Assembly: GCA_965366815.1 (NCBI GenBank)
Contig: CBDUGV010000005.1
Location: 1 to 54,234 of the forward strand
Direction of reading: 5' to 3'
Source: an uncultured Bdellovibrionales bacterium
Lineage (GTDB): Bacteria > Bdellovibrionota_C > UBA2361 > SZUA-149
DNA: 54,234 bases
Below are positions 14,096 to 17,295 of the stretch, one piece after another; the first letter of the stretch is position 1, and the number at the start of each line of letters is the position of its first letter. The notes below the pieces were generated by a model. That model was not told the DNA's origin, did no database searches, and was given only the letters and a program-made list of their open reading frames with translations. Made by a program: the position numbers and the translations under genes.

Positions 14096-14932
14096 CTACC
14101 AGTAATAGAAAACTGAAAAAATATGAATTAGTAAGGCTACAACTAACGCACAGGAAACAGGCAAATGCAGATACAACCAAGCGCGAACCCAGGTTTGAGC
14201 TCGAGACTCATCTTGCAATCGACAGACGAGTTCGCGCTTTTTGTTCACAAGGCCAATCAAATTGCGCCCATCTTCTTGTTCGTTCTTCGGTAAACTTGCA
14301 AGCAACTTCGCCATTCGCTTGCGGTCAATGGGCTTTGGGTTTCGCCGACGCAAACTGCGCATCAGACTAGGCTGAAAACTGAAGTCGATCGAAGTAATCA
14401 TTTTCACAAAAGCATCCGACTTTAACGTCGTCTCAGTCGTGCCCCCCAACAGATCCTCAATCTCTCCGGCAATCGCCTTAATCTGTTCAATGAGTTGCTT
14501 CGGCGTCCCCCCCCCTCGCTGCGAGCGCAAATCCATTGGTTTATCGGAATACATCACGACACCCCAAACGCCACTGGCAATAACAAACACCATCAGTACG
14601 TAAGCGAGGGTATGAACATTGAGGCCAAATGAAAAAGCACAGTGCAAGGGGACAATAAAGGTAAGTGCAACACCAATCCAGACATGCGCCGCAAGCGTCC
14701 CTTTGAGCGTCGTATATTTCGCATAAAAACTGCGCTTTCGAATGCCGTAATACATCAGGAAGGCTATGCCAGCAGTCGCGATGCCCCCATATGTATAACC
14801 GAGCCAACTCCCACCGCTCGGACCACCCACTGGGTCATGCATCACATAGATCACACCCATCGCGAAAGTTACCGCGATGCAGATCCAGAGCCATTTAAAA
14901 TTCTGATAACTAAGATAGGTCTCTGAATTCAA
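14096..14932 (-). CDS. Integral membrane protein, probable di-heme b cytochrome (ferric-reductase-like TM domain)
   Basis: About 5 TM helices. Two carry His pairs 14 residues apart (HVWIGVALTFIVPLH; HLPVSCALVVALLIH). TTG start 2 nt after the upstream stop. Confidence 0.7.
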   Translation of the reverse strand: MNSETYLSYQNFKWLWICIAVTFAMGVIYVMHDPVGGPSGGSWLGYTYGGIATAGIAFLMYYGIRKRSFYAKYTTLKGTLAAHVWIGVALTFIVPLHCAFSFGLNVHTLAYVLMVFVIASGVWGVVMYSDKPMDLRSQRGGGTPKQLIEQIKAIAGEIEDLLGGTTETTLKSDAFVKMITSIDFSFQPSLMRSLRRRNPKPIDRKRMAKLLASLPKNEQEDGRNLIGLVNKKRELVCRLQDESRAQTWVRAWLYLHLPVSCALVVALLIHIFSVFYYW

Positions 14933-14934
14933 GG

Positions 14935-17295
14935 CTACGACCCCTTGCGATCGATTAACAGTTTCATCATCTCGGTTGGGTTAACCCGCATCGCAGCACC
15001 AGTCGGACAAGAGCGAACACATGCGGGACCGCCATCGAGCTCGGAGCACATATCGCATTTAGCCGCTTTTGCCGGACCTTTCTTTGCCTCGCCGAAACTC
15101 CCACCGATTCCCAACCAACTCAAAACAGGTATACCCGTGCGTTTCTTGTCATAGACAAGCTGAATTACACCGTACGGACAATTGGTCACACAGTTCCCAC
15201 AACCAATACAGGTTTCTTTAATTATCACCTCGCCATCAGGCCGTCGCTCAAGCGCATCCGGCGGACAATCGAGCATGCAGAGGGGATTCTCACAGTGCCG
15301 ACATGAAACGGGCAATTGAATAGAGGCCAAACTCTTGCCGCCTTTCCGGTCGAGCCGACTATATCCCTTATGGGTTGCGGCACAGGCTTTCTCGCAGTTG
15401 TCGCAGCCAATACAAAGGTCGGAATCAATCAGCAGCACATTCTCCGCATCACTGACTCCTTCAGCCAAGACGAAATCGAGCACCTCACCAGAAACTTCAT
15501 CTCGAGAGGCAGTGATATTCTCAATTCGCCGTTCTTCGACTAGCTGGAGAACCGCACTTTTGGTCTCGGGGTTACTTTCAAGTAGGGCATCAAAATACTG
15601 TTTCGAGATACTCAGAGTTTCACAAGGCACCGCTGCTGAAACTGTCGCACTGCGTGGTTCGTTGCCTATCAGCGCCATCTCACCAACATAGTTTCCAGCA
15701 GAAACATAGGTTTGAGCGACATCCACTCCCTCAGAGTTCTTCCGAGAAATCTTTGCCGAGCCTTTTAGGATAACGTAGAGTGCATCGCCTTCATCACCCT
15801 CGTTGAAAAAGACCTCTCCTTTTTTAAAATTTTGCTGCTTGGAGTTACTGACGAGTTCCGCTAGAAACATCGCATCGGCATTAGGAAAAATCGACGTCTT
15901 TAAGACTCGCAAGAAAAAGACCTGATCGATCGATTGTTTTACCGACGGAACCGAACTCATCAGCTTCAAGATCTGGTTTCGCTTGGTTTCGAGCAAGATA
16001 GAGCTTTCTAGAGCGCGAACGGTTGCAGTTCGTCTACGGCCCGAAATCAGCCCCATCTCACCAAAGAAGTTGCCCTTGCCCAAACGAAAGTACGACTCAT
16101 CGTCTTTCGGAGACTCAACGCCAACACTACCGTCGATCACATTCCAAACGGTATCGGTATAATCATTTCGCTCGAAAACAACGTCCCCTTCTTTCAAGAC
16201 GTGCACAGTAGAGTCGCACAGCATCTCTCGAAATTGCGGTGTGGAGAGATCGGCAAAAAGCCGCATCCGGCGCCGCGCGAGCATGAAATTCTCGGCAGTA
16301 TCGCCCGGCATTGGCTGGAATACTTCTTCGATGAGAACTTGGTCAGCCGGCTCGACTGGATTTCCAATTATATGCTCTACAACTTCATATCCTTGGTTAA
16401 TCGCTTGCTTGATCAAGGGATAGCCGATAAGTGCGCCGATAACGTATATCCCTTTCACGTTACACTCGTAACTATCGCTCACCGCTGGGAAGGACGTTAT
16501 ATCAGAACTCGGAAACTCGATGCCGCAGCTTTCAACAAACTTTCTAGGGGGAATACTTCCCGCACGGACAATAATGTGATTGCATTTTACGGTCACATCT
16601 CCATCGGGTCCGCTGACTACCGTTTGCTCGGGGCCAATTTCCTTAATTGTCGCGTCATAAAAGCAGCGGATCTTACCGGACTTAATCGCATCGAGAATCT
16701 TAGCTCGGTTGGCGTCCTTAGCTCGCGGAAATTCAGCACGTCGATTGATAATCGATGCTGAATTTTTCTCAGCTAACGCCAAAACGTTTTCAATGGCCGA
16801 ATCTCCCGCACCGACGACGAGAATGTCTTGCCCTTCAAAGGCATCGGGATCTGCTAAGGTGTAGGCCACTATCCCATAGTCATCTTCGCCAGGAACCCCG
16901 AGTTTTCGCGGTGTCCCCATGGTTCCAATACCGAGGACTATATTGTCCGCAGTGAATGCACCCTTGTTGTGACCTACGAGAAATTTGCCATCGGCTTGCT
17001 TTTCAATTTTGGTAACTTCGGCCTTGAGGATATTGACGTTGTTTTCCTTTAACGCCGTGTCAAAGCCTTGGAGGATTTCTTCTCTACTTCCTTCTTCGAA
17101 GGGAACGTGAGCCCGTAGAGGCAGTTTCCGCGGTTCGGCCATCACGAGTTTTCGCAACTGATAGTCGTATATGGTGTTGGCGATTTCCGCTTTCTCGACA
17201 AGAACGTGGCTACGTCCATGTTTTGCCGCATTCGTCGCGGCGCCCAGACCACCAGGGCCTGATCCGATGACTGCTATTTCAAAATGTTCGGTCAT
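14935..17295 (-). CDS. FAD/NAD(P)H oxidoreductase (TrxR fold, no CxxC) + two cNMP-binding domains + 4x[4Fe-4S] domain
   Basis: VIGSGPGG (FAD), VVGAGDSA and INRR (NADPH-type). Two cNMP cassettes FFGEMGLISGRRRTATV and YVGEMALIGNEPRSATV. 16 Cys in DmsB/NrfC spacing: CIGCDNCEKAC, CRHCENPLCMLDCP, CIGCGNCVTNCP, CDMC...CVRSCP. Confidence 0.9.
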   Translation of the reverse strand: MTEHFEIAVIGSGPGGLGAATNAAKHGRSHVLVEKAEIANTIYDYQLRKLVMAEPRKLPLRAHVPFEEGSREEILQGFDTALKENNVNILKAEVTKIEKQADGKFLVGHNKGAFTADNIVLGIGTMGTPRKLGVPGEDDYGIVAYTLADPDAFEGQDILVVGAGDSAIENVLALAEKNSASIINRRAEFPRAKDANRAKILDAIKSGKIRCFYDATIKEIGPEQTVVSGPDGDVTVKCNHIIVRAGSIPPRKFVESCGIEFPSSDITSFPAVSDSYECNVKGIYVIGALIGYPLIKQAINQGYEVVEHIIGNPVEPADQVLIEEVFQPMPGDTAENFMLARRRMRLFADLSTPQFREMLCDSTVHVLKEGDVVFERNDYTDTVWNVIDGSVGVESPKDDESYFRLGKGNFFGEMGLISGRRRTATVRALESSILLETKRNQILKLMSSVPSVKQSIDQVFFLRVLKTSIFPNADAMFLAELVSNSKQQNFKKGEVFFNEGDEGDALYVILKGSAKISRKNSEGVDVAQTYVSAGNYVGEMALIGNEPRSATVSAAVPCETLSISKQYFDALLESNPETKSAVLQLVEERRIENITASRDEVSGEVLDFVLAEGVSDAENVLLIDSDLCIGCDNCEKACAATHKGYSRLDRKGGKSLASIQLPVSCRHCENPLCMLDCPPDALERRPDGEVIIKETCIGCGNCVTNCPYGVIQLVYDKKRTGIPVLSWLGIGGSFGEAKKGPAKAAKCDMCSELDGGPACVRSCPTGAAMRVNPTEMMKLLIDRKGS

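Follow-up and report, generated by a model that had tools for sequence, protein, structure and literature searches.

The Tmc, Hmc and DsrMKJOP complexes of sulfate reducers combine periplasmic multihaem cytochromes c with a membrane dihaem cytochrome b and cytoplasmic Fe-S proteins, providing an inner-membrane electron path that is independent, or partly independent, of quinone, as is the path we propose here. Their b subunits are of the NarI/HdrE type, their Fe-S proteins are HdrD-like, and electrons flow inward to sulfate reduction; we know of no NAD(P)H flavin domain, and of no cNMP or FHA domain, in any of them. NADPH oxidases (NOX), ferric reductases and MsrQ follow another logic, in which electrons pass from cytoplasmic NAD(P)H to a flavin, then to two stacked haems b carried on helices with His pairs, and finally to an outside acceptor. 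Such chemistry reportedly occurs in bacteria, with bacterial NOX and the E. coli MsrQ system as examples.

A third system, ptdABCDEFG of marine bacteria, has been described by annotation as a putative porin-cytochrome complex of "completely unknown" function, its parts including PtdB (a porin), PtdD (a periplasmic tetrahaem protein), PtdE (annotated as cNMP-binding, with 4Fe-4S clusters), PtdF (a membrane protein resembling ferric reductases) and PtdG (a periplasmic decahaem protein) (10.1101/2023.11.21.568154). The window analysed here, 54,234 nucleotides of DNA from an uncultured Bdellovibrionales bacterium, contains a tetrahaem protein, a flavoprotein, a membrane protein and a decahaem protein that match the D-E-F-G order, a likeness at the level of description. 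However, the two clusters, as far as the published account of ptd goes, differ in several respects (10.1101/2023.11.21.568154): (i) in the window a single chain unites the FAD domain with the cNMP/Fe-S part, whereas ptd has a separate FAD/NAD(P) oxidoreductase, PtdC; (ii) the window protein has motifs for four Fe-S clusters, and PtdE is given two; (iii) neither PtdC nor the pentahaem/beta-sandwich protein PtdA has a counterpart in the window or in the 52 scanned loci of at least 15 kb; (iv) the outer part here consists of an HbpS-like lipoprotein, a porin-like protein and a second decahaem protein with LVIVD repeats; and (v) the passages on ptd speak neither of gating nor of an FHA domain or His pairs. 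The cluster is akin to known transmembrane redox and porin-cytochrome systems, with cNMP and phosphothreonine inputs that we propose. On balance, we think it probable that its flavoprotein and membrane protein are the inner-membrane input module of a trans-envelope conduit, carrying electrons outward from NAD(P)H under cNMP control.

Gene order and conservation of the cluster

Six genes on the minus strand form an operon spanning 4515..17295, at whose head the flavoprotein ORF (17295..14935) and the membrane-protein ORF (14932..14096) are separated by only 2 nt. Behind this pair follow, all on the minus strand, an FHA-TM-decahaem cytochrome c of 582 aa (12331..14079), an HbpS/GlcG-like lipoprotein of 666 aa (10269..12269), a porin-like outer-membrane protein of 664 aa (8290..10284) and, closing the operon, a secreted decahaem cytochrome c of 1254 aa with LVIVD (beta-propeller) repeats (4515..8279; LVIVD E 5.8e-16), which has a signal peptide and 10 CxxCH motifs. 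A secreted, cytochrome c554-like tetrahaem protein of 423 aa (17385..18656, plus strand; Pfam Cytochrome_C554 E 5.9e-13), with four CxxCH motifs and one CxxxxCH, is encoded divergently, upstream of the operon. Every protein downstream of the core pair bears an export signal, and the whole six- to seven-gene cluster contains 24 c-type haem motifs (CxxCH).

In the 582-aa protein (Pfam FHA E 2e-13, plus c7/c3 families), a cytoplasmic FHA domain is joined by a single TM helix (136-164) to a periplasmic decahaem part with 10 CxxCH across residues 184-540, a count shared by 68 of 70 homologues. The lipobox of the 666-aa protein can be seen in the translation; this protein matches Pfam HbpS-like in three stretches (E 1.9e-19), with EfgA and PduO-C as weak PDB matches. 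The 664-aa protein is tentatively called a porin from its NCBIfam and Atlas matches and its termini: it has zero Pfam matches and meets NCBIfam DESULF_POR1 at E 9.7e-6, far under the family cut-off, while an alginate-export-like Atlas cluster fits at 0.96, the N-terminus resembles a signal peptide and the C-terminus reads ...LILFY. The TTG listed for its gene probably lies upstream of the true start.

We compared 80 loci from at least five phyla, among them Bdellovibrionota, Nitrospinota, Myxococcota and Alpha- and Gammaproteobacteria. The flavoprotein gene adjoins the membrane-protein gene in all 80; the FHA-decahaem gene is found in 75, the HbpS-like gene in 63, the porin-like gene in 57, the tetrahaem gene in 55 (divergent and upstream in Bdellovibrionota, downstream in Nitrospinota) and the 1254-aa decahaem gene, after the porin-like gene, in 52 (49-73% identity), the missing genes lying mostly at contig or flank ends. 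The family has thousands of members, which together with the fixed gene order puts this architecture far beyond chance and confirms that both the observed domain architecture and the gene pair are real. Two fused ORFs, P0241 (1012 aa) and P0359 (1110 aa), 37% identical to one another, both join the Fe-S C-terminus to the membrane-protein N-terminus; this arrangement locates the start of the membrane protein on the cytoplasmic side and ties the two proteins into a single unit. In one MAG (L009), the flavoprotein, b-type protein and FHA-decahaem genes stand alone as a second copy, which marks these three as the functional core.

The flavo-iron-sulfur protein

The first gene of the operon (14935..17295, minus strand) encodes a cytoplasmic flavo-iron-sulfur protein of 786 aa with tandem cNMP-binding domains, delimited from the ORF, Pfam and NCBIfam; on inspection, the chain has no signal peptide and no TM-like segment, and at least 120 full-length homologues of 775-808 aa are found among the matches listed. 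Residues 1-315 (16351..17295, minus strand) form a predicted FAD and NAD(P)H domain of YpdA/TrxR fold (Pyr_redox_3 at residues 9-287, E 2.5e-35), with GxGxxG at 11-16 and GAGDxA at 162-167. The original prediction that this TrxR-fold domain lacks CxxC holds across the family: the site reads GIVAYTLADPD (residues 141-151), Cys occurs there in 0 of 72 members, and Y145, L147 and D149 are conserved instead. The best fold match is the bacillithiol disulfide reductase YpdA/Bdr (7a76/7a7b; TM 0.80-0.81 and E 5e-25 by Foldseek, E 6e-20 by phmmer), and CxxC is likewise absent from YpdA and from the TrxR-type FNR (3lzw, TM 0.62). This protein is nonetheless distinct from YpdA, whose own Cys, in GGGPCG, aligns with G15 (HMMER to 7a76/7a7b), a site that is G or A in 72 of 72 homologues, and its TIGR04018 score, 145.6 bits, falls short of that family's cut-off of 339.9. 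The proposed electron acceptor would also differ, being an in-chain Fe-S domain here and a disulfide or free ferredoxin in YpdA and the TrxR-type ferredoxin-NADP+ reductases.

That Fe-S domain, of HycB/HydN/AegA-N type, occupies residues 620-780 (14956..15438, minus strand; Fer4_11, Fer4_7 and others), with Fer4 dicluster families of Pfam matching residues 661-767. Its four Cys motifs, at 628-638, 665-677, 696-706 and 747-763, are read as sites for four [4Fe-4S] clusters, and all 16 Cys are invariant in 72 of 72 sequences. In NCBIfam it is matched by the AegA N-terminus (E 6e-25) and HydN (E 3e-21), both under the equivalog cut-offs, and in the PDB by HycB3/HycB4 (7qv7) and HycB (7z0s). AegA resembles the 786-aa protein in combining a domain of this kind with a pyridine-nucleotide flavoprotein, although the flavoprotein part of AegA is GltD-like; neither FdnH/FdnI nor the HycB/HydN ferredoxins nor the AegA/YgfT fusions are known to have CNB domains, and FdnH is periplasmic, unlike the protein described here.

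The membrane protein and the proposed direction of electron flow

The second gene (14096..14932, minus strand; TTG start) encodes a 5-TM protein of 278 aa, a putative dihaem cytochrome b as judged from the alignment and its invariant His residues. The two TM His pairs expected from the window are indeed a family feature: H83/H97 on TM3 and H256/H270 on TM5, each HX13H, are invariant in 77 of 77 sequences, which argues for transmembrane electron transfer, and H107 is likewise invariant. A 116-residue cytoplasmic helical insert separates TM4 from TM5, and the topology is read from the positive charge of loops 65-75 and 134-249 and from the fused ORFs. The window's own protein has no Pfam match; among 26 homologues examined with HMMER, 19 match PF01292 at E<=1, a weak similarity confined to one helix, and one matches PF01794 (E 0.46). 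Neither Foldseek nor VIA-align found a cytochrome b in the PDB for the AF2 model (pLDDT 70), and hhalign returned nothing against E. coli CybB, MsrQ and YodB, its sole match being the last helix of FdnI (E 0.043), with both TM5 His aligned; haem binding thus rests on the logic of the motifs. In the Atlas, the closest clusters bear the automatic name 'Ferric reductase like transmembrane component'.

This name, the presence of a His pair on each of two helices, an arrangement shared with NOX/FRD-type proteins, the single-chain forms P0241 and P0359 and the bacterial precedent of NOX and MsrQ all fit a ligand-gated NADPH oxidase or ferric reductase that is complete in itself, whose outer haem b would reduce O2 to superoxide, or Fe(III), at the periplasmic face while the cytochromes serve otherwise. 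We regard this as unlikely, since the FHA-decahaem gene comes next in 75 of 80 loci, the minimal L009 triad included, which points to a cytochrome as acceptor, PF01794 is met by a single member of 26, and the dehydrogenase is of TrxR type plus Fe-S and not of FNR type. There is no homology to the NOX dehydrogenase domain. Two CNB domains and a wire of four Fe-S clusters moreover come in between, and the domain order is reversed. The pair shares its logic with NOX but does not belong to that family. Of the split, ligand-gated oxidase or reductase first predicted, the unity of the two genes stands, given their adjacency in 80 of 80 loci and the fusions, whereas its self-contained nature does not, the pair belonging to a six- to seven-gene cluster. 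As the input end of a conserved cluster with 24 haem motifs, a porin-like protein and lipoproteins, the pair would likely deliver electrons from its outer haem b to the periplasmic decahaem part and not directly to O2 or Fe(III).

The match to FdnI raises another alternative, an NAD(P)H:quinone oxidoreductase resembling FdnHI with a cytoplasmic donor, whose haems b would reduce quinone while other enzymes feed the cytochromes c from quinol. A four-cluster ferredoxin domain beside a PF01292-like b subunit is the FdnH/FdnI pairing, and two further points agree with it: the hhalign match to FdnI, in which both His line up, and the weak PF01292 matches in 19 of 26 homologues. Yet a quinone site near the inner haem would make the periplasmic-side haem needless, and both His pairs are invariant; a site on the outer side would, we reason, waste proton-motive force; the tight operon link to a membrane-anchored decahaem protein better suits direct hand-over; and a Pfam search of the cluster found no NapC/CymA-type quinol dehydrogenase. 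Quinone reduction therefore seems improbable to us.

Under our preferred reading, NAD(P)H, with NADPH favoured, would reduce the FAD of the YpdA-like domain, devoid of redox cysteines, and electrons would then run along the C-terminal HycB-type domain with its four [4Fe-4S] clusters. Two haems b would come next, the first (H83/H256) on the cytoplasmic side and the second (H97/H270) on the periplasmic side, and after them the decahaem cytochrome c that the following gene encodes and that is anchored in the membrane, the whole route bypassing the quinone pool. From this anchor, electrons may move on to the outer-membrane part of the system, made up of the tetrahaem, HbpS-like, porin-like and 1254-aa decahaem proteins, beyond which a metal oxide, Fe(III), O2 or some other oxidant is the candidate terminal acceptor. 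With NAD(P)H at about -320 mV, outward flow is downhill and helped by the membrane potential. The opposite direction, from an extracellular donor through the porin-cytochrome part to the reduction of NAD(P)+ in the cytoplasm, deserves very little credence: all the proposed cofactors are reversible, TrxR-type FNRs run in both directions, and one carrier MAG (L067) comes, by its title, from a biocathode community, but such flow would oppose the membrane potential and climb to -320 mV in a cluster with no coupling ion pump, as we reason, and the carriers belong by name mostly to aerobic aquatic lineages (Bdellovibrionota, Nitrospinota, Rhodospirillales).

Tandem cNMP-binding domains and proposed control of the chain

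Outward flow of electrons from NAD(P)H wastes energy, so tight allosteric control would make sense. The domain map confirms that a cNMP tandem lies, in sequence, between the flavin and four-cluster domains: domain 1 covers residues ~345-462 (15910..16263, minus strand; phosphate-binding cassette, PBC, FGEMGLISGRRRTATV at 411) and domain 2 residues ~470-592 (15520..15888, minus strand; PBC VGEMALIGNEPRSATV at 537; best Pfam stretch 488-575), the Pfam cNMP_binding family matching in two stretches (E 1.4e-41). Both cassettes had been predicted to be intact, and they read as expected: G412, E413, R420 and R421 of PBC-1 and G538, E539 and R548 of PBC-2 do not vary in any of the 72 sequences, which represent five phyla, A424 and A550 are kept in 71 of 72 and S/T549 in 65 of 72, with position 423 of PBC-1 variable (T 30, V 18, S 15, A 3 of 72). 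In the PDB, the two domains align as one stretch (residues 364-572, E about 1e-22) with the tandems of PKA RI-alpha and PKG, whose cassette residues Gly-Glu and Arg-Ser/Thr-Ala are retained; the output is a redox enzyme here and a kinase in PKA/PKG, and a cNMP is the candidate ligand of the 786-aa protein.

We infer from this that the CNB domains bind cNMP and gate the redox chain. In the AF2 model, helices 565-611 after domain 2 lead into the Fe-S domain, and they would run directly to the first cluster motif; the tandem could govern how far the Fe-S domain lies from the flavin, or how it is oriented towards it, so that cAMP or cGMP would switch electron export, and the FHA domain of the decahaem anchor would add a phosphothreonine input. 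The Fe-S domain of the model has pLDDT <50, which leaves the FAD-to-cluster geometry and a cNMP-dependent gap to the first cluster without structural support.

CNB-fold domains of other proteins bind other ligands, and some are non-cNMP sensors. This, and the fact that a core of three genes encodes as many regulatory modules (two CNB, one FHA), would suit a protein that mainly senses the NAD(P)H/NAD(P)+ ratio and cNMP and regulates the cytochrome chain, or signalling, with no part in the bulk electron flux, or one in which the CNB domains are a structural or dimerising linker. We give such a role a low probability, as a wire of four clusters, its 16 Cys all invariant, would be a high price to pay for sensing alone, the PBC residues that characterise true cNMP binders do not vary either, and fusion to the dihaem protein suggests an electron through-path. 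Cyclases offer a weak lead that cNMP signalling may be available to carriers of the cluster: their genes lie within 10 kb in 6 of the 80 loci (the L009 triad is flanked by two such genes), a frequency that, in loci that are not independent, is not above a rough chance estimate, and the genome of the window has one class III cyclase, which is fused to FHA.

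A conserved pair of flavoprotein and membrane protein

The observation of a flavoprotein paired with a membrane protein is real, and the pair is strongly conserved. Both open reading frames lie on the minus strand where the original prediction had placed them: the flavoprotein at 17295..14935 (786 aa, ATG start) and the membrane protein at 14932..14096 (278 aa), whose TTG start is located 2 nt past the flavoprotein stop. P0121, the database copy of this membrane protein, has a later start and 254 aa. The longer TTG start is likely to be right, because the first 24 residues from the TTG at 14932 (window 14860-14932, minus strand) are kept across the family (ETFLSYRxFRWLW) and run on from the flavoprotein in fused forms. 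The two proteins are one unit: (i) the flavoprotein gene is directly upstream of the membrane gene in all 80 loci, which were found via the membrane protein, and in 75 loci the flavoprotein match spans 50% of the query or more, the other loci being cut by contig ends. (ii) Natural fusions exist among the database relatives, namely P0241 (1012 aa), from a search for longer forms, and P0359 (1110 aa), from an exhaustive search; in both, Pyr_redox_3, two cNMP domains, a Fer4 domain and then the whole membrane protein follow one another in frame. Since these fusions are only 37% identical to each other, a shared sequencing error is argued against. Another relative, P0242 (824 aa), has the appearance of a cNMP/Fe-S, membrane and FHA fusion; because Arg/Pro/Gly-rich stretches separate its recognisable parts, it was taken as a frameshifted assembly artefact and not counted. 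Complex prediction for the Fe-S domain (596-786, alignment A2) and the membrane protein (alignment A1) gave a score of 0.00 in a control-free run and is neutral on binding.

Conservation within the flavoprotein was scored over 72 sequences from five phyla, comprising the window copy and the 71 public copies that, among the 80 loci, showed a tblastn coverage of at least 95% of the flavoprotein query. By word-indexed search there are at least 120 full-length relatives (775-808 aa, 58-100% identity) with an identical domain set, and the source names of those listed are either generic or mere lists of domains. Pfam places Pyr_redox_3 on residues 9-287 (E 2.5e-35), and both Rossmann motifs of the TrxR fold are conserved in the 72 sequences (G11/G13/G16 for the FAD GxGxxG, G162/G164/A167 for the NADPH GxGxxA). 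The redox CxxC had been reported as missing from this domain and is indeed absent throughout: the site reads Y-T-L-A, and Cys occurs there in 0/72 family members. The nearest NCBIfam models for the different parts of the protein are YpdA, CRP-type cNMP domains, the AegA N-terminus and HydN, all of them below their equivalog cut-offs; low-Mr thioredoxin reductase (TIGR01292) reached 80.9 bits against a cut-off of 343.45, and YpdA/Bdr (TIGR04018) 145.6 bits against 339.9. The PDB structures closest to the AF2 model are likewise YpdA/Bdr (Foldseek, TM 0.80-0.81), followed by TrxRs (E about 1e-19 to 1e-22), TrxR-type FNRs and the tandem CNB domains of PKA and PKG. The Cys of the YpdA GGGPCG motif has a catalytic role; in HMMER alignments with 7a76 and 7a7b the flavoprotein has G15 opposite this Cys, and over the family 42 of the 72 proteins have A at this position and 30 have G. 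With 3lzw (phmmer E 8e-12, TM 0.62), one of the TrxR-type FNRs, which hand electrons from NADPH-reduced FAD to an Fe-S protein, the flavin domain has a CxxC-less TrxR fold in common. By their defining tests, the flavoprotein is outside TrxR, YpdA and NOX. It carries the motif N184-R185-x-x-E-F-x-R191-A-K193, similar to HRRxxxR, the NADPH-binding motif of TrxR; NADPH is therefore favoured as the donor, though we write NAD(P)H. AF2 modelled residues 1-592 with confidence, and the Fe-S domain (593-777) has a pLDDT <50.

The family cNMP_binding (PF00027) matches the flavoprotein in two stretches (140.8 bits, gathering cut-off 27.5, E 1.4e-41), and a PDB sequence search aligned the CNB pair over residues 364-572 with PKA RI-alpha and PKG, both domains in a single unit. 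The two phosphate-binding cassettes (PBCs) are FGEMGLISGRRRTATV, from residue 411 (PBC-1), and VGEMALIGNEPRSATV, from residue 537 (PBC-2); they are as intact as had been claimed, with Gly-Glu ... Arg-(Ser/Thr/Ala)-Ala present in each and conserved in the family. In PBC-1, G412, E413, R420 and R421 are found in 72/72 sequences and R422 and A424 in 71/72, position 423 being variable (T 30, V 18, S 15, A 3 and N 2 of the 72); in PBC-2, G538, E539 and R548 are present in all 72, A550 in 71 and S/T549 in 65. The helices C-terminal to the CNB unit (565-611 in the AF2 model) run up to the first cluster motif, at C628. The four predicted [4Fe-4S] clusters have their motifs: 16 Cys in four motifs (628-638, 665-677, 696-706 and 747-763) are invariant in 72/72, several 4Fe-4S dicluster families of Pfam fall on residues 661-767, and the C-terminal domain matches HycB3/HycB4 (7qv7) and HycB (7z0s) in the PDB sequence search (E 1e-18 to 1e-20). 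HydN (NF007658) gave 75.6 bits for a cut-off of 260, so the domain is not a HydN equivalog; functionally, its nearest counterparts among experimentally known systems are FdnHI, HycB and AegA.

For the membrane protein, 77 sequences were compared: the window copy and one from each of the 76 loci, out of 80, where coverage reached 95% or more. H83, H97, H107, H256 and H270 are invariant both in alignment A1, which holds 26 homologues, and in 77/77. TM3 holds H83/H97 and TM5 holds H256/H270, the partners of each pair standing 14 residues apart, a spacing that is also that of the two His-pair helices in mitochondrial cytochrome b, and these four conserved TM His are placed to ligate two putative haems b. 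The topology is probably N-in, because the loops 65-75 (RKR) and 134-249 (22 K+R vs 15 D+E) are net positive; the order of the parts in P0241 and P0359 also puts the N-terminus on the cytoplasmic side. With this topology, H83/H256 would lie towards the cytoplasmic face and H97/H270 towards the periplasmic face. Homology lends a b-type cytochrome identity thin support. Pfam found no match on the window's 278-aa protein, nor did PF01292 at E<=1; PF01292 matches 19 of the 26 homologues at that threshold (best 2.2e-7), covers only the last helix in the homologue from locus L073 of Oceanibacterium hippocampi CECT 7691 (20.2 bits, cut-off 30.1) and is precomputed for 6 of the 120 homologues listed, and DUF4405 is matched by 7 of the 26. 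In the Atlas, the closest clusters bear the automatic name 'Ferric reductase like transmembrane component' and have no Pfam family in common. Foldseek with the AF2 model (pLDDT 70) returned nothing from the PDB at E<=0.001, the wide VIA-align search had its best Z, 8.5, to a COX3 chain, inside helical-bundle noise, and a PDB profile search with A1 had no meaningful result, its top match being a de novo protein at E 0.031. By hhalign, A1 had no match to E. coli CybB, MsrQ or YodB, and aligned with FdnI over 30 columns of the last helix only (E 0.043, probability 1.2%). The family itself is large, with 3148 clusters of 50% identity at E<=0.001, 1198 at 1e-10 and 278 at 1e-30.

The operon and its carriers

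The pair heads a tightly packed operon. The third gene (14079-12331, minus strand) encodes a 582-aa protein in which a single TM helix links an FHA domain (Pfam E 2e-13) to a part with ten CxxCH; 3' of it, also on the minus strand, are the genes for an HbpS-like lipoprotein (666 aa) and a porin-like protein (664 aa; 10284-8290), and the last operon gene listed encodes a secreted 1254-aa protein with ten CxxCH and LVIVD repeats. Upstream of the operon and divergent from it lies a cytochrome c554-like tetrahaem gene (17385-18656); the multihaem ORFs of the window have 4, 10 and 10 CxxCH. A barrel in the porin-like protein is hinted at by DESULF_POR1 (E 9.7e-6), an alginate-export-like Atlas cluster (0.96) and an aromatic C-terminus. 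Gene order is kept across the public loci: of 80, 75 have the FHA-decahaem gene, 63 the HbpS-like gene, 57 the porin-like gene, 55 the tetrahaem gene and 52 the second decahaem gene, contig or flank ends accounting for most of the absences; ten CxxCH are kept in 68 of the 70 copies of the third gene. Scanning the window from 2500 to 19800 for promoters and terminators gave sites no more numerous than in shuffles, and a search of sequencing runs returned three DNA datasets, from one marine-metagenome study, and no RNA dataset.

The carriers are assigned to Bdellovibrionota/Oligoflexia, Nitrospinota, Myxococcales, Rhodospirillales and other Alphaproteobacteria, with one Granulosicoccaceae MAG, and include ecologically important groups such as nitrite-oxidising Nitrospinota and the Bdellovibrionota of fresh and marine waters. 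The system is common: an encoded relative was found in 211 species-level genomes, and sampling of 124 genomes from the window's own phylum showed the membrane gene in 69, with 41 of the 73 high-quality genomes and 30 of the 64 genera carrying it. One carrier, O. hippocampi CECT 7691, is cultured, and its locus L073 has the genes from the flavoprotein to the second decahaem protein, the last one incomplete at the locus end; the hypothesis is therefore directly testable. No tetrahaem gene was seen in L073. Between its decahaem and HbpS-like genes there is an additional 311-aa ORF (L073:12636-13571, plus strand) with a weak Biotin_lipoyl-like match, which overlaps the listed start of the HbpS-like gene. 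The Nitrospinota loci have variants of their own: in L051 (10833-13901, plus strand), L049, L050 and L056, the third gene encodes about 930-1020 aa, with a C-terminal WD40 beta-propeller on the decahaem part, and the tetrahaem gene is downstream of the cluster, not divergent. One Bdellovibrionota MAG has a second copy with the first three genes alone (L009), which points to the flavoprotein/membrane/FHA-decahaem triad as the core.

A putative electron route and its rivals

The pair forms the input module of a larger putative electron conduit, found in several phyla, that had earlier been noticed at annotation level only. The facts that any mechanism has to accommodate are a flavin domain of NAD(P)H type that is cytoplasmic and has no redox disulfide, a four-cluster domain in the same chain, a membrane protein that is covalently or genetically coupled to them and has two conserved His pairs across the bilayer, and exported multihaem cytochromes encoded directly 3'. 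As judged from the sequence, the gated NAD(P)H-to-haem path of the original prediction is plausible, and it is incomplete. In the path as we would extend it, electrons would move from NAD(P)H to FAD, through four [4Fe-4S] clusters to the inner and then the outer haem b, and on to the decahaem cytochrome and outer-membrane proteins. Two rival readings make the pair a direct NOX-like oxidase or a quinone reductase. For the membrane part, the likeness to a NADPH oxidase or ferric reductase that had been proposed has the two TM His pairs (77/77) in its favour; PF01794 (Ferric_reduct) is matched in only 1/26 homologues, at E 0.46, and the comparison with MsrQ was blank. On the flavin side the likeness does not hold, the domain having the Pyr_redox_3/TrxR fold and not the FNR fold. 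What speaks most strongly against both rivals is the combination of an invariant outer His pair with a membrane-anchored decahaem protein (75/80 loci). A further rival, inward electron uptake, would use the same carriers in reverse; outward flow would be downhill and aided by the membrane potential, whereas inward flow would be neither.

The cNMP domains invite yet another reading, in which the flavoprotein is a sensor; the four-cluster domain in the same chain speaks against it. In the gated electron path, the tandem CNB unit sits between the flavin and Fe-S domains, and a PKA-like hinge movement on ligand binding could shift the Fe-S domain nearer to or farther from the flavin; the FHA domain would be a further, phosphothreonine input. 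Allosteric control would make sense because such a path drains reducing power without energy conservation. Taken to its full extent, the gated path would be a second-messenger-gated 'electron valve', a quinone-independent route that would connect cytoplasmic NADPH with the cell surface by way of FAD, four Fe-S clusters, two haems b and >20 c-type haems, would open on cAMP/cGMP and Ser/Thr-kinase signalling and would serve regulated extracellular reduction in aerobic aquatic bacteria; we put this forward tentatively, as a possibility that we ourselves think rather doubtful. If true, its users would be a large Bdellovibrionota class, Nitrospinota and marine Alphaproteobacteria, and its uses might be, for example, reductive iron/manganese acquisition or the NAD(P)H-dependent release of superoxide outside the cell by heterotrophic bacteria, the enzyme of which is, to our knowledge, still unidentified.

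The bacterial electron-export routes known to us take their electrons from the quinone pool (Mtr/CymA, Geobacter Pcc with ImcH/CbcL, and the Gram-positive Ndh2/EetAB). The route proposed here, if true, would have an entry point distinct from these, starting at NAD(P)H and crossing the inner membrane on two haems b, and its control would matter because it would waste energy; we know of no described electron-transfer chain under allosteric cyclic-nucleotide gating. Compared with the Mtr/Pcc porin-cytochrome conduits, the window has two decahaem proteins and one tetrahaem protein, with a putative beta-barrel, and its input gene is that of an NAD(P)H flavo-Fe-S protein in place of a quinol dehydrogenase; by Pfam, quinol dehydrogenases of the CymA, ImcH or CbcL type are absent from the cluster. 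The functionally nearest experimentally known systems include the Tmc/Hmc/Dsr transmembrane complexes of sulfate reducers. NOX and MsrQ are also among them (PMC5676040, PMC12525009).

Our search of the full-text literature found one relevant paper, a preprint that describes, at annotation level, the ptdABCDEFG cluster of marine bacteria (bioRxiv 10.1101/2023.11.21.568154). By its account, the multihaem proteins are PtdA (pentahaem, with a beta-sandwich), PtdD (tetrahaem) and PtdG (decahaem), while PtdB is a porin, PtdC an FAD/NAD(P) oxidoreductase, PtdE a cNMP/4Fe-4S protein and PtdF a ferric-reductase-like membrane protein; the genes are present in ODZ Alphaproteobacteria, and the function of the cluster 'remains completely unknown'. 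By description only, the order D-E-F-G is that of the window's tetrahaem protein, flavoprotein, membrane protein and decahaem protein, and the window also has a porin-like protein. PtdA and a separate PtdC were not found here, and the outer module differs; the window's decahaem gene is followed by the HbpS-like and porin-like genes. Among the 52 loci scanned, each 15 kb long or more, no five-haem ORF was detected; full-length ORFs with at least 3 CxxCH carry 3, 4, 9 or 10 of them and ORFs cut by the locus end carry 3 to 8. The uet cluster of Tenderiales, described in another preprint, was also considered and set aside as a different system.

Signalling genes and other neighbours

Elsewhere in the window's own genome, on a separate contig, there is a 333-aa fusion of an FHA domain and a class III nucleotide cyclase (L081:1057-2058), the sole PF00211 match in this 4.5-Mb, 90%-complete genome. 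A 48%-identical homologue (L007:4653-5222, minus strand) adjoins the tetrahaem gene of a full cluster, and the FHA-cyclase may link phosphothreonine and cNMP signalling to the electron-transfer cluster. Cyclase-like matches occur in the flanks of 6 of the 80 loci, among which L007 and L009 are from one genome and L055 and L057 are near-identical; this neighbourhood is a lead only, because the rough chance expectation is 2-3 of 80 loci. In L009, each side of the triad has a CHASE2-cyclase and a FecR/TPR protein, one of the two FecR/TPR proteins bearing a TonB-receptor-like barrel; they are encoded at 1631-3637 and 3642-7280 (minus strand) and at 13932-17552 and 17571-19601 (plus strand).

A 721-aa Ser/Thr kinase is encoded at 89-2254 (plus strand) of the window, and is a candidate writer for the FHA domain. 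Its kinase domain is N-terminally incomplete, since the Pfam match starts at position 74 of the 263-position profile; as a conserved FHA partner it was rejected, a homologue being found in only 1/80 loci. Also near the cluster are the genes for a hybrid PAS histidine kinase with a receiver domain (21567-23741, plus strand) and for an acidic protein of 450 aa and low complexity that has HEAT repeats at its C-terminus (19565-20917, minus strand); in the 80 related loci, the former had only 2 short matches and the latter no counterpart. Finally, another contig of the same genome encodes a paralogue-like protein of 770 aa (L083:247-2559, minus strand), whose Pyr_redox_3 domain is 32% identical to the flavin domain; it has Fer4 and Fer4_5 motifs without cNMP domains, and is possibly an ungated relative.
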